A stretch of 64,000 nt of DNA, taken from positions 1 through 64,000 of the IMG/VR virus record IMGVR_UViG_3300019764_000005. One strand, given 5' to 3'. Of this stretch, positions 53,262-55,979 are shown one piece after another. Made by a program: the position numbers and the translations under genes. The stretch is from a virus. Below the pieces are notes generated by a model, which saw only the letters and a program-made list of their open reading frames with translations, was not told where the DNA came from and made no database searches. Each line of letters opens with the position of its first letter. Position 1 is the stretch's first letter.

Positions 53262-53975
53262 ATGCAATCATTACACAGATTTTACCTCGATTTAGAGGTC
53301 GTAGGGCACAAGCCTACTATTGAAGAATTACAGGCTAAAATTAAGCCTAGTGCTAATTGCAAGACCGATGATTCCCGTCTTGCCAGTATTCAAAAGCAAA
53401 CAGATGCTTTACTAAAAAACCCTGAAGCTGCACTCGAAGCTGCTCATCGTAAAAACTCTTTGGATATTTTCAAATCCGATATTATATGTGCGGGTTTCAA
53501 ATTCGATTCCCATAAAACAAGAGGTGTATGTTACATAAAGGAGCGAGATACCGTTAAGGAGTTAAATAAGATCTGCAAAGATCTTGGCACTGAACAACAC
53601 TTGGTTGAGTGGGTTACTTGGAATGGTACCGAGTATGACATTCCTATCCTTACTGCTCGTGCTCTTCTTTATGGATACATGGATTTGTACAACTCTTTAC
53701 CAAAGAGTAAGAACGATAAAAGGAATATCGATCTAATGCATCATGTAACTCCTACTATTTGGAAGGCTTATTATTCACTATCGGATATTTGTAAGTATCT
53801 TGGTATTCCGGTTAAAGAAGGTCTTATTACTGGTGCTAATGTCTTTGACCATTATTACGATGGCAATATTAAAGGTATTAGAAAGTATTGTATTCAAGAT
53901 GTCCAGGCGTTAGTAAAGCTTGCTAAACGTTTTAATCTTGATTATACTATAAAGGGTAGGCATCATCTTGATTAA
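53262..53975 (+). CDS. DEDD 3'-5' exonuclease (PolB-exonuclease/RNase H-like)
   Basis: LDLE, TWNG..YDIP.L, IDLM, SL..IC.YLGI and YC.QDV motifs. Confidence 0.85.
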   Translation: MQSLHRFYLDLEVVGHKPTIEELQAKIKPSANCKTDDSRLASIQKQTDALLKNPEAALEAAHRKNSLDIFKSDIICAGFKFDSHKTRGVCYIKERDTVKELNKICKDLGTEQHLVEWVTWNGTEYDIPILTARALLYGYMDLYNSLPKSKNDKRNIDLMHHVTPTIWKAYYSLSDICKYLGIPVKEGLITGANVFDHYYDGNIKGIRKYCIQDVQALVKLAKRFNLDYTIKGRHHLD

Positions 53976-54362
53976 CGGTAAATTGTATGGCAATGTAATT
54001 TTACGGATTTGAAACACAAAATAACAATATTATGAAATGGAAATTTGAAAAAGAATTTAGGGCAGACCACCCAGAAACAATAGGTGAAACTGATAGAGAG
54101 TTTGACATTGACAATTACAAAGATTGGCTTGAACAAAAGTTAGTAAAATTATTTGCTATACAAGATGTTAGCCAACGAAGTGAACTGTTAGCAATTGCCG
54201 CCCTCGACAAAATTGCACACCCTATTAAACACCTACAAGAAGAAGCTGAAAAGGATGGGTGTAAACTTGATGGATATATGGCAATACAGCTAACACAAGA
54301 TGCTAATTTTTACCAAGAAATTGCAGATAAAGCACTAAAGGCAATTGCTAATTGTGGCTAAC
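53973..54362 (+). mobile_element. TAAC-A-GTTA-B-TAAC cassette 4
   Basis: A arms 53984-54004/54143-54162; GTTA 54167-54170; B arms 54167-54199/54340-54362. Confidence 0.75.
54032..54361 (+). CDS. cassette-encoded hypothetical protein
   Basis: 109 aa; crosses the central GTT in frame and ends at the terminal TAAC. Confidence 0.65.
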   Translation: MKWKFEKEFRADHPETIGETDREFDIDNYKDWLEQKLVKLFAIQDVSQRSELLAIAALDKIAHPIKHLQEEAEKDGCKLDGYMAIQLTQDANFYQEIADKALKAIANCG

Positions 54363-54445
54363 TACTTTATATATTCACTTTTACTTCCTATAAACGTACT
54401 CATACACAGCGGTATAAGCGGTAAATTTATAAAAAAACCAATCTC

Positions 54446-55375
54446 ATGAAACACATCATTTTAAGCAGCTCAATGACTACGGCTCTTGGTTTATTTGTTT
54501 GTGATGATGAAATACTCACCGTAGATCATTGTCCGAAGTATGCTAAAGCAAGGCACATAGGCGACGAATCCATAGTGGATAAGGATTCTAAAAGTGTTCT
54601 TCAGAAAAAATACTTCAGGACGCAATGTCTTGGTACTTACAAGGATGGTGAGTGTCTTAACGATCTTCCAAGGCTTAGTAATAAATCCAAGGGTGTCGAG
54701 CAGAAAAGAATCGATTTGCAAGTTTTGGAATATCATAAGCTTATAGCAGAACGAAACATCAACGTAAACATCTACAACACCAACATGGCTTTAATAGCTT
54801 TTTTTGGACAAATTGAGATTGGGGATGATGATTATTCTGTGTGGCTTAAGGATGAGATTAGCATCTTCCCTACAGTGGTTGATTATTCTGATTTTGCCAT
54901 GGTCGATCTTGAACTTACTCGGGATGTTTACAATGACTTCTTTGCTCCTGGGCAGGTAAGGAAAGTTTCTGGTAGTTGTTGGGGCTCTCCTCAGTACATT
55001 GCTAAGAACAAACCTTTATTCTCTCACTACATTGTCCGAAATATGGATAAGGACCACATTTTAAGGCTTAATGCAGACAATACTGAGAAGGTTGAAGCTC
55101 TTATTACCGATCAAGTTATCAGGCTGTCTAAGGATGCTAAATTCTACTACATTGTATTTGGTCACACTTCAAGCAAGTCTAACAAGAAGCAAACTCGGGT
55201 TGTAAAGTATGAGTGGAACAAGAAAAGATCATCTCTCCTTGACGAACTGGTAAGTAAGGCTCTTGACATATACATGGAGAATAAAGTTAATGGTTGGGTG
55301 GCTAATCCTATCTCAGAAATATGTAATAAGTGTCCTTTAGAATGTGAGTTAAAGGACAAGGATATTGAAATTTAA
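54446..55375 (+). CDS. PD-(D/E)XK/Cas4-like nuclease fold protein
   Basis: HCPK near the N-terminus, MVDLEL core and C-terminal CNKCPLEC; sits in the recombination cluster. Confidence 0.5.
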   Translation: MKHIILSSSMTTALGLFVCDDEILTVDHCPKYAKARHIGDESIVDKDSKSVLQKKYFRTQCLGTYKDGECLNDLPRLSNKSKGVEQKRIDLQVLEYHKLIAERNINVNIYNTNMALIAFFGQIEIGDDDYSVWLKDEISIFPTVVDYSDFAMVDLELTRDVYNDFFAPGQVRKVSGSCWGSPQYIAKNKPLFSHYIVRNMDKDHILRLNADNTEKVEALITDQVIRLSKDAKFYYIVFGHTSSKSNKKQTRVVKYEWNKKRSSLLDELVSKALDIYMENKVNGWVANPISEICNKCPLECELKDKDIEI

Positions 55376-55387
55376 TCTTACAATGTT

Positions 55388-55582
55388 ATGATATTAGAAT
55401 TTGGCAAATATAAGGGATTGAGCATTTATAGTGTTGCAGATGATGATCCAAGCTATGTTATATGGCTTGCTCAAGAAACTAATACTGATGTTCCATTAGA
55501 TGCTATAGCGTGGGCTAATGATGCTATGATGGAGCCTGATTATGAAGATTTACATGGAGATGATTGGGGTTGTAGGGATTGA
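55388..55582 (+). CDS. small FGKYKG-motif (DUF3820/ExoX C-terminal-like) protein
   Basis: LEFGKYKG...DPSYVIWL. Confidence 0.7.
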   Translation: MILEFGKYKGLSIYSVADDDPSYVIWLAQETNTDVPLDAIAWANDAMMEPDYEDLHGDDWGCRD

Positions 55583-55650
55583 ATGTGAGTTTAAAAATAA
55601 AGATATTGAAATTTAATTGGAACCGCTCTTTAAAAAAGAGCACAAAATTA

Positions 55651-55979
55651 TAACGTTGAGCGTTTTGGTAGTTGGGATTTTGAAAGACTACCCTACCAAA
55701 TATTGATAACTTTAAATAGAAATACGATGAAACAAAATAACACAGAAACCCAATTACCTAAACATATTGTTAGCACCCGTTACTTAGATGACGATGTTGT
55801 GCTAACCACAGATGATGAGTTCTTCTTTTATTGGGAGGTTAAAAAGCACAAACTTACAGTAAAAGAAAAAGCTACAGATAAAGAAGCTGCTGAATATAGA
55901 AAGGAATTTGCGTATTGGCAAAAAGAAGAACAGGAAAACCAAACTGCTGCAAATTACGGTAGTAGTTATGGGTGCTAAC
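55651..55979 (+). mobile_element. TAAC-A-GTTA-B-TAAC cassette 5
   Basis: A arms 55661-55676/55749-55764; GTTA 55769-55772; B arms 55769-55784/55964-55979. Confidence 0.75.
55727..55978 (+). CDS. cassette-encoded hypothetical protein
   Basis: MKQNNTETQLPKHIVSTR...; crosses GTT in frame and ends at TAAC. Confidence 0.6.
   Translation: MKQNNTETQLPKHIVSTRYLDDDVVLTTDDEFFFYWEVKKHKLTVKEKATDKEAAEYRKEFAYWQKEEQENQTAANYGSSYGC

Follow-up and report, generated by a model that had tools for sequence, protein, structure and literature searches.

Whether the gene cassettes of a phage can trade the N- and C-terminal parts of their proteins at a fixed DNA word is the question raised by the IMG/VR virus record IMGVR_UViG_3300019764_000005. 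The whole stretch analysed, called the window here, is the first 64,000 nucleotides (nt) of this 72,154-nt record of an uncultivated virus, for which CheckV gives a completeness of 68%. The window contains five units bounded by the words TAAC and GTTA. In three of them (cassettes 1, 4 and 5), an open reading frame (ORF) starts inside a hairpin loop, reads the GTT of a central GTTA as Val and uses the TAA of a terminal TAAC as its stop codon. These features, described in an earlier note made from the DNA letters, are all present. The note went on to propose that recombination at GTT exchanges N- and C-terminal modules in a fixed frame. The re-pairing of heads and tails is real for cassettes 4 and 5. 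However, GTT is not the main crossover site, and the frame is not fixed. The five cassettes are probably integron-type gene cassettes that use TAAC as the main and GTTA as a rarer site of exchange. Because the phage carries no integrase, they may be called CALIN-like, after the clusters of attC sites lacking an integrase (CALINs).

Unit architecture and the site family

Each unit has the layout AT-N6'-TAAC-G..stem..loop..stem..T-GTTA-N6-GT, gene body, AT-N6'-TAAC. N6 and N6' are complementary, their letters vary between cassettes, and the resulting inverted repeats are 8-10 nt long in the five units of the window. The features of cassettes 4, 5 and 1 are as follows.

53973-53976, + strand: first TAAC of cassette 4, the outer hairpin foot and putative main crossover core
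53983-54163, + strand: hairpin of cassette 4, closing stems at about 53983-54004 with 54143-54163
54032-54361, + strand: ORF of cassette 4, 109 amino acids (aa), start 56 nt past the first TAAC
54167-54176, + strand: central GTTA+N6 of cassette 4, junction 1 (Val46-Ser47, frame 0)
54187-54199, + strand: second GTTA of cassette 4, junction 2 (frame 2, Leu53 = TTA), 20 nt past junction 1
54351-54362, + strand: terminal AT-N6'-TAAC of cassette 4, with the ORF stop TAA (54359-54361) in TAAC 54359-54362
55651-55654, + strand: first TAAC of cassette 5, preceded by a small stem-loop (hairpin B, 55625-55641)
55667-55758, + strand: hairpin of cassette 5, closing stem 55667-55676 with 55749-55758, loop containing the ATG at 55727
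55727-55978, + strand: ORF of cassette 5, 83 aa, with a 14-residue leader, Val15 and a body conserved from residue 15
55769-55778, + strand: central GTTA+N6 of cassette 5, a perfect 10-nt inverted repeat of 55970-55979
55968-55979, + strand: terminal AT-N6'-TAAC of cassette 5, with the stop TAA (55976-55978) in TAAC 55976-55979
9566-9926, - strand: cassette 1, hairpin stems at about 9917-9902 with 9825-9810

The TAA of the first TAAC of cassette 4 is the stop codon of an exonuclease-like ORF (53262-53975; Pfam DNA_pol_B_exo2). Within the hairpin loop are a leader rich in A and the first 37 codons of the cassette ORF, starting with the ATG at 54032. When 53973-54170 is folded as DNA, the closing stem appears in both the minimum free energy (MFE) and the centroid structures, with a z-score of -2.95 and only one of 200 shuffles folding equally well. 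GTT 54167-54169 is read as Val46 (I-Q-D-V-S-Q), which lies between an N-module (residues 1-45, with a PETIGETD motif) and a linker (residues 47-52) that leads to a C-module (residues 53-109). At the first junction, 54167-54174 is a perfect 8-nt inverted repeat of 54355-54362; at the second, 54188-54199 is a 12-nt inverted repeat of 54339-54350. An AlphaFold2 model of the protein, with a predicted local distance difference test (pLDDT) score of 72, has a helix at residues 26-42, a break at 43-47 and a helical bundle at 48-107. In this model, Val46 is predicted to sit in the break between the N-terminal helix and the C-terminal helical bundle. None of the 132 matches listed by Foldseek for the model against the PDB reaches E <= 0.001.

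Cassette 5 has its first TAAC one base to the right of the position implied by the earlier note, and its GTT (55769-55771) is read as Val15 (K-H-I-V-S-T). Its closing stem is likewise present in the MFE and centroid structures. Cassette 1 lies on the minus strand, and the TAA of its first TAAC (9926-9923) is the stop codon of a helix-turn-helix (HTH) gene (10196-9924). Its ORF (9881-9567, 104 aa) reads GTT 9806-9804 as Val26 (L-Y-N-V-T-H) and ends at TAA 9569-9567, which belongs to a TAAC, and GTTA+N6 (9806-9797) forms a 10-nt inverted repeat with 9575-9566. Pfam and PHROG searches with the ORFs of cassettes 1, 4 and 5 gave no family match. Single-strand DNA folds predict closing stems in all five units of the window.

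The same type of site is found in other genomes, where cassettes form head-to-tail arrays in which adjoining cassettes share one TAAC, terminal in the upstream cassette and first in the downstream one. Five Flavobacterium phages carry such arrays: lillamy9-1 (14 sites), mumin9-1 (11), hattifnatt9-1 (9, plus one doubtful), mymlan6-1 (10) and sniff9-1 (15). Polaribacter phage P12002L has four sites around methyltransferase and Mom-like genes. All sites of the phage arrays point the same way as the genes. Further sites of this type occur in three metagenome loci (L002, L003 and L006) and, around relatives of the methyltransferase of cassette 3, on contigs of seven binned genomes; the bins of site-carrying contigs include Chitinophagales, Bacteroidetes, Massilibacteroides, Flavobacterium, Ignavibacterium and others. 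In total, 58 sites from the window, six cultured phages and the metagenome and genome loci were curated. TAACG and TGTTA are invariant across an alignment of 16 sites. The 14 site folds of lillamy9-1 share a TAAC/GTTA foot, an unpaired spacer of 4-5 nt and a stem with one mismatch and one bulge, while the loops span 8 to more than 100 nt. The extra bases stand on the 5' arm of the sense strand. The hairpins of the five phages fall into 21 clusters at 85% similarity.

The complementary bases covary. Among the 13 consecutive GTTA..TAAC pairs of lillamy9-1, complementarity is perfect over 10 nt in ten, over 9 nt in two and over 6 nt in one, and these pairs use 12 different N6 words. A common origin of the two cassette ends in a single recombination site would be expected to produce such covariation.

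A covariance model (R1) built on four lillamy9-1 sites recovers 11 of the 14 sites of this phage and two places in L003, and fewer with filters off. It also matches four clustered sites in one genome of an Ignavibacterium bin (G004), the nearest of which lies about 900 nt from a tyrosine recombinase gene adjoining hemL. This locus can be summarized in one line.

L060 (G004:C8:82500-94500), 1285-7354: chromosomal integron-like locus with hemL, an IntI/Xer-like recombinase gene and at least four sites with cassettes

The recombinase scores 227.6, against a cut-off of 220, with the NCBIfam model 'site-specific tyrosine recombinase/integron integrase', and stays below the cut-off of TIGR02249 (210.8 vs 265). 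It is oriented like the cassettes, one of which encodes a GNAT acetyltransferase, and the cassettes likewise have 9-nt N6/N6' repeats. However, TAACG..TGTTA reads antisense to the genes in this bacterial array and sense in the phages. Tyrosine recombinases are numerous in the five binned genomes searched, as in any bacterium, and the one considered here, in G004, shares its contig with the R1 matches. Rfam has no family for the sites, its matches being tRNAs and one unrelated motif. RNAalifold gave no structure on a MAFFT alignment of 16 sites, in which the stems are out of register.

Two side observations concern individual hairpins. In L030, from a Massilibacteroides bin, the same 123-nt hairpin, also with the same N6, occurs three times (3-122, 536-655 and 3838-3957), each copy being followed by a cassette of about 100 nt, which suggests a recent duplication of one unit within the genome. 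In Flavobacterium phages, annotated hypothetical proteins of 33-38 aa (L020, NC_048835.1: 3052-3159, 2309-2425, 7615-7716, and similar ones) are encoded wholly or largely within hairpins, in the stretch from TAAC to GTTA; these ORFs may not be real genes.

Exchange at TAAC and at the central GTTA

Comparison of the five Flavobacterium phage arrays reveals whole units that are present, absent or reordered. Three independent cassette insertions or deletions (hairpins and bodies H16+C17, H4+C4 and H1+C1) break exactly at TAAC. In each of them, the unit lost is a hairpin with its downstream body, and the joined form matches the left flank as far as TAAC and, beginning with that word, the right flank. 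Consistently, a methyltransferase unit (hairpin H12 and body C13) stands behind four different upstream cassettes, and the H6+C6 unit stands behind three. The mobile unit is a hairpin with the downstream body ending in its own TAA, and the crossover lies within TAAC. Because the breaks fall at TAAC and the hairpin moves with the downstream gene, TAAC is the main crossover. Head and tail thus normally stay together, GTTA being a secondary and less common point of exchange. In these phages, GTT is therefore not the usual crossover that the earlier note took it to be, since a hairpin, with any start codon in it, moves with its downstream body. By contrast, the expectation that insertion at the first TAAC leaves the stop codon of the upstream gene intact agrees with the three gains or losses, all of which break at that word. 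A crossover at TAAC also explains why many cassette ORFs end at the TAA of TAAC.

Head/tail re-pairing at GTTA is seen in the homologues. Of 32 homologues of the cassette 4 protein, 25 contain the N-module, eight (plus one fragment) contain the C-module and only two contain both. Val stands at the junction in 21 of the 25 N-module proteins and is followed by S, N, T or R, residues with A-first codons, as GTTA requires. After this Val, the N-module has 18 different continuations; four variants of the module are each joined to several tails, and at least four unrelated heads precede the C-module. In an alignment of 17 N-modules, Val46 never varies, although its neighbours do. At the DNA level, the junction Val is encoded by GTT-A in all five loci of the family with DNA sequence at hand (window, L002, L003, L006 and L011), while GTT-A makes up 13% of the Val codons in long ORFs of this genome. 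In three of these five loci, the body has its own intact N6/N6' repeat (8, 9 and 10 nt), with letters that all differ.

The second junction of cassette 4 shows a similar pattern. The conserved C-module begins exactly at the TTA (Leu53) of the second GTTA, and its homologues have L, Q, M or T before that Leu, residues with codons able to end in G. As far as this junction, three N-module proteins have the linker in common, and they diverge only there. A tblastn search of a phage collection with the cassette 4 protein found only an Acinetobacter phage protein that matches its residues 57-103; the C-terminal part of this protein is the C-module, and it is otherwise unrelated. A scan of IMG/VR for the N-module gave one locus, and a single metagenome scan gave 15.

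Cassette 5 has eight homologues, whose bodies are conserved from V-S onward. Unrelated leaders ending at V/I-S are present in six of nine aligned sequences, the window's own included, and one leader type (69% identity over 16 residues) is found on a cassette-4-type as well as on a cassette-5-type body. A scan of IMG/VR for the cassette 5 family gave 0 loci. Thus, for cassettes 4 and 5, the two halves occur with different partners and the break falls at the Val codon, as anticipated; for cassette 1, half-swapping is not seen in the two homologues.

Because the hairpin precedes the gene and its loop is A-rich, a start codon can lie in the loop, and the ORF must then cross T-GTTA. At 21 of the 58 curated sites, an ORF of at least 40 aa starts at a loop ATG and crosses GTTA. 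The other 37 sites have no such ORF: the gene begins past GTTA or, in a few, no such ORF is found within 160 nt. A GTT-crossing ORF is thus not a general feature of the cassettes. Frame 0 accounts for 15 of the 21 crossing ORFs (two doubtful), frame 2 for four (lillamy gp24 and three sites in L030 and L035) and frame 1 for two (both doubtful); the second junction of cassette 4 (Leu53) is also in frame 2 rather than frame 0. Measured against a uniform null, the excess of frame 0 is significant (P = 0.0004). Yet the favoured Val codon is GTT, so that 205 of the 344 GTTA words within ORFs of this genome (60%) stand in frame 0 anyway; with this proportion as the null, P = 0.19. Frame 0 is a majority habit and no rule, so the fixed frame of the original proposal does not hold.

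Four hairpins of 120-130 nt (L020 8480-8354; L035 3436-3552 and 3857-3979; L030 3510-3630) each have a 16-codon leader in frame 2 that ends in xxG-TTA. Two of these leaders resemble each other and the leader of P0010/P0037; the bodies that follow are unrelated, and one is the methyltransferase.

A proposed recombination mechanism and its rivals

In the mechanism that we propose, a unit starts just past TAAC with an attC-like hairpin, made of the foot TAAC-G, an unpaired spacer, an imperfect bulged stem, a variable loop of about 10-200 nt and the foot T-GTTA. Six cassette-specific bases (N6), the gene body, the complementary N6' and a TAAC follow. The hairpin stands ahead of the gene on the sense strand, with a loop that encodes the first 14-45 codons in cassettes 1, 4 and 5, and the terminal TAAC, whose TAA often stops the ORF, is the next crossover point. 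A canonical crossover between TAA and C would carry the hairpin and the gene together, and the cassettes would be integron-type units in reversed gene orientation. In integrons, the AAC triplet is cleaved between A and C, and the strand cleaved is the folded bottom strand. In the phages, the sense strand may be equivalent to this recombining strand of classical integrons, in which case the cut would fall between TAA and C. Exchange between G and TTA would be a second and less frequent reaction, via the other strand or another non-canonical route. Such an exchange would swap hairpin-encoded heads against bodies, and its product would be expressed only if the frames agree.

Because the phages examined encode no such enzyme, the recombinase would presumably be supplied by the host, as an IntI/Xer-like tyrosine recombinase. 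A NinG/Rap-like protein (window 10334-11002; L020 17277-17816; L025 36311-36973) is the only ORF product common to the window record, lillamy9-1 and P12002L at BLASTP E < 1e-5. It is not proposed as the enzyme: PF05766 is found in four of five array-bearing phages, and mumin9-1, with its 11 sites, lacks it. The cargo would consist of accessory early genes for DNA methyltransferases, HTH regulators and small proteins without known family, with a likely, though putative, use in host take-over or counter-defence.

Several observations weigh against this reading. The overall folds of cassettes 5 and 1 are weak (z = -1.15 and -0.43, respectively). GTTA..TAAC repeats of at least 8 nt within 2.5 kb number 16 genome-wide, against a mean of 17.5 in shuffled sequences (n = 100), and those of at least 10 nt number 2, against 1.41. 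An R1 search of the window finds none of its own sites at E up to 10; the window sites are joined to the family by the shared motif, fold and N6 logic rather than by the model. The window record, 68% complete, has no match to PF00589, PF00239 or PF01797, and five complete array-bearing phage genomes have none to PF00589 or PF01797. The equivalence of strands with integrons draws on one bacterial array and on general integron biochemistry, and of 40 sites, 26 fold better on the sense strand than on its complement, with a wide margin in window-type and P12002L sites. The evidence for re-pairing is mostly at the protein level. L003 and L006 have the N-module and lack the perfect repeat, and both homologues of the cassette 1 protein match over their full length with no re-pairing. 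In DNA, hairpin H6 is connected to body C4 in mumin9-1 and mymlan6-1; the switch lies inside the six bases past GTTA, leaving a hybrid N6 and a broken repeat (4 nt left), so that this exchange looks imprecise rather than site-specific. The preference for frame 0 does not exceed the codon-usage null.

Some of these points favour a different account, which we regard as rather unlikely. Crossover would occur at TAAC only, and the re-pairing at Val would arise by homologous or illegitimate recombination on the 3' arm of the hairpin plus the T-GTTA microhomology, in the manner of the promoter early stem-loop (PeSL) elements of T4-type phages. The three clean insertions or deletions all break at TAAC, the sole GTTA-side exchange seen in DNA is the imprecise one with the hybrid N6, and the 3' arms of the hairpins are partly conserved across sites. 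The window phage encodes the NinG/Rap-like protein, and PeSL-mediated shuffling is documented (PMC2839356, PMC4122927). However, three of the five N-module loci have an intact 8-10-nt N6/N6' repeat directly past GTTA, which places the break within a base or two of GTTA. Moreover, 21 of 25 proteins keep Val and a residue with an A-first codon before 18 continuations, and the invariant stretch measures only about 5 nt.

It is quite improbable that the hairpins and the N6/N6' pairing act in mRNA, in processing, stability or presentation of the start codon, with recombination being incidental. The phage sites are always co-oriented with the genes, the sense strand is the one that tends to fold better, and start codons lie in A-rich loops, as an mRNA role would have it. 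Such a role leaves the breaks at TAAC and the reordering of whole units unexplained. In addition, sites of this type run antisense to the genes of the bacterial array that adjoins a recombinase gene, and one attC of P12002L has recombined under IntI1 (PMC9892861).

The units insert exactly past a fixed tetranucleotide with no target duplication, and carry at one end a hairpin whose flank pairs with the distal end (N6/N6'). These properties resemble non-autonomous single-strand transposons of the IS200/IS605 kind, which would insert 3' of TAAC guided by pairing beside the hairpin, in a manner comparable to IS608. However, no Y1 transposase (PF01797) is found in the window record or in the five complete phage genomes, each unit has one hairpin rather than one per end, and the bacterial array is adjoined by a tyrosine recombinase and not by a Y1 enzyme. 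We therefore hold a transposon origin to be very improbable.

Chance is the remaining rival: tetranucleotides such as GTTA and TAAC are frequent, and it is nothing unusual for an ORF of 100 codons to contain an in-frame GTT-A. Both words occur at chance level in the 64,000 nt (TAAC 263 times, GTTA 269 times). Among 159 ORFs of at least 50 aa in the six frames of the whole 72,154-nt record, 71 contain an in-frame GTT-A and 13 end in TAA followed by C; given the 60% null, three of three in frame 0 has P = 0.21. The extended complementary flanks tell against chance. Only three of the 13 TAAC-ending ORFs have a GTTA with a repeat of at least 8 nt to the stop, and these are cassettes 1, 4 and 5. 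When all 974 TAAC..GTTA pairs of the genome lying 40-400 nt apart are ranked by the duplex energy of their flanks, cassettes 5, 1, 3 and 4 take ranks 2, 3, 7 and 11. N6 and N6' covary in dozens of cassettes, and the architecture is kept in unrelated phages. As an account of the architecture, chance is ruled out by this flank complementarity and has next to no credibility; as an account of the claimed fixed frame, it still stands.

An invertible switch of the shufflon or Gin-Cin type was rejected, as flipping the GTTA..TAAC segment leaves only 4, 35 and 7 codons before the frame closes (cassettes 4, 5 and 1, respectively), and the window record yields no match for a cognate invertase, whether serine or tyrosine recombinase.

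Other units of the record and relation to known systems

The other two cassettes of the window and the repeats near the cassettes are listed below.

52154-52933, + strand: cassette 3, with TAAC 52154-52157, a 54-nt hairpin, GTTA+N6 from 52204 and a terminal TAAC ending at 52933
21425-21574, + strand: cassette 2, in which GTTA+N6 21425-21433 pairs with the TAAC ending at 21508 (9 nt)
52929-52961, 54358-54390 and 55975-56007, + strand: Repeat A, 33 nt, three copies in the 72,154-nt record with 0-1 mismatch
43421, 44447, 52128, 55625 and 57746, + strand: hairpin B, 17 nt (7-bp stem, 3-nt loop), five copies just upstream of gene starts

The body of cassette 3 is a complete DNA methyltransferase gene (52266-52886) with its own start; its inverted repeat measures 8 nt and its fold has z = -2.35. 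This gene is the only one of the window with close DNA relatives in cultured phages (81-82% identity, Cellulophaga and Flavobacterium phages). Cassette 2 is nearly empty, with 84 nt between its outer ends (21425-21508). It is followed by a 48-nt mini hairpin (21505-21552; z = -2.66) and an 'empty' GTTA-N6..N6' unit. A 78-nt segment occurs in two copies of opposite orientation that are 95% identical, one behind cassette 1 (9500-9577) and the other behind cassette 2 (21497-21574). Each copy comes after a terminal TAAC and holds the 48-nt mini hairpin with TAAC/GTTA feet, and in each, GTTA-N6 pairs with an N6' just 8 nt on, which makes an 'empty cassette'.

Repeat A lies directly past the terminal TAAC of cassettes 3, 4 and 5, with the next resident gene downstream. 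It is probably resident sequence marking the insertion point, or else it may be a phage promoter. Downstream of two hairpin B copies, those at 52128 and 55625, come the first TAACs of cassettes 3 and 5, respectively; hairpin B may be a terminator or a regulatory stem-loop.

The public sequencing runs that contain the region, 11 of them listed and none of RNA, are labelled microbial mat metagenome. Contigs from four runs over 51500-57500, short and of low depth, included none joined across a cassette at TAAC/GTTA, and a blastn search of the phage collection in distant mode with 53900-56100 gave zero matches. Elsewhere in the record, ARAGORN reports a tRNA with a four-base anticodon (aaat) at 44152-44227 (Rfam tRNA score 56.8 bits), and there are two tRNA-Met genes (5671-5744 and 5859-5932). 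A 37-nt direct repeat, 86% identical, occurs at 55340-55376 and 55581-55617. Its first copy contains the final 11 codons and the stop of ORF 54446-55375, and the second lies beyond a 64-aa ORF (55388-55582) that matches Pfam ExoX-like_C. Without use of the TAAC/GTTA sites, this small ORF seems to have been introduced into, or exchanged at, the 3' end of the neighbouring ORF.

Clusters of attC sites in virulent phages are already published. They are reported to be rare, with 17 CALINs among 10,705 phage genomes, in virulent phages that include P12002L (PMC9892861, Qi et al. 2023). For the CALIN of P12002L, two methyltransferase genes and two sites are reported, and one of its attC sites recombines with attI1 under IntI1 (PMC9892861). 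The main text of that report does not name Flavobacterium phages, and the paper on the Flavobacterium phages compared here (PMC7077304) makes no mention of hairpins, palindromes, intergenic regions or cassettes.

The sites described here share with integron attC sites and CALINs the imperfect palindrome with AAC/GTT feet, the unpaired spacer, the bulged stem and the variable loop. As in those systems, the first bases of a cassette complement its own distal core, and cassettes are gained, lost and reordered at the core, here in phages without an integrase. The methyltransferase cargo is shared with the CALIN of P12002L, and the R1 model matches an array beside an integron-integrase-like gene in a bacterium. 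In contrast to the classical site at the 3' end of the ORF, the hairpin here precedes its gene and stands on the sense strand. The core differs as well. The seven-base attC consensus is RYYYAAC/GTTRRRY, whereas the core here is TAAC/GTTA with a free N6. In the window, only cassettes 2 and 3 fit the consensus; cassettes 1, 4 and 5 and most lillamy9-1 sites have pyrimidines in place of purines. The conserved part of the phage sites is TAAC/GTTA plus AT..GT at a fixed distance. Unlike those of attC sites, the loops, which extend to about 200 nt, include start codons and as many as 45-62 codons, and the arrays are far denser than in the P12002L report, with up to 15 sites in a 38-kb phage against two.

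ORFs that cross a cassette boundary are found in integrons, aacA4 and ORF-11 being examples. In such fused or externally started cassettes, the N-terminus is set by upstream sequence, as it is here; however, fused cassettes are described as rare and as formed through loss of attC (PMC4670013), whereas here the start lies in an intact hairpin at 21 of 58 sites, and head/tail combinations make up whole families. PeSLs are likewise short structured intergenic elements beside small accessory early genes of lytic phages that undergo modular shuffling. PeSLs, however, are near-identical promoter-terminator repeats that act by homology, while the sites here comprise 21 hairpin clusters with about five invariant bases per foot and a cassette-specific complementary N6.

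A constant head with many interchangeable tails and a short conserved junction also characterizes polymorphic toxins. In those loci, such as the 'VENN' type of contact-dependent inhibition (CDI) systems, a constant N-terminal part is followed by variable C-terminal parts after a conserved junction motif. In contrast, the junction here is the core of a DNA site, GTTA, and no peptide motif, the proteins are phage proteins of about 60-130 aa, and no toxin/immunity pair is seen. In the literature searched, we found no description of start codons or whole N-terminal modules inside attC loops, of head/tail re-pairing in phage cassettes or families of such chimeras, of dense Flavobacterium-phage arrays, of the reversed orientation of site and gene or of cassette-specific N6 pairing.

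Integrons are viewed as bacterial platforms, and here the entire early-gene regions of cultured Flavobacterium phages are cassette arrays. One site type connects phages of several host groups with a chromosomal integron-like locus, and it offers a candidate mechanism by which lytic phages could trade accessory genes such as anti-restriction methyltransferases. We tentatively suggest, as a possibility short of being likely, that in phages of Bacteroidota-type hosts, with their dense integron-like arrays, the hairpin doubles as the start region of the gene and in some families encodes a complete N-terminal domain, and that precise crossover at either foot (TAA|C or G|TTA) by a host IntI/Xer-like enzyme would amount to in-frame module shuffling. 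If true, such a site-bound way of re-pairing protein heads and tails would be a prokaryotic counterpart of phase-compatible exon shuffling. It would generate libraries of small chimeric early proteins, with host take-over or counter-defence as a plausible use.

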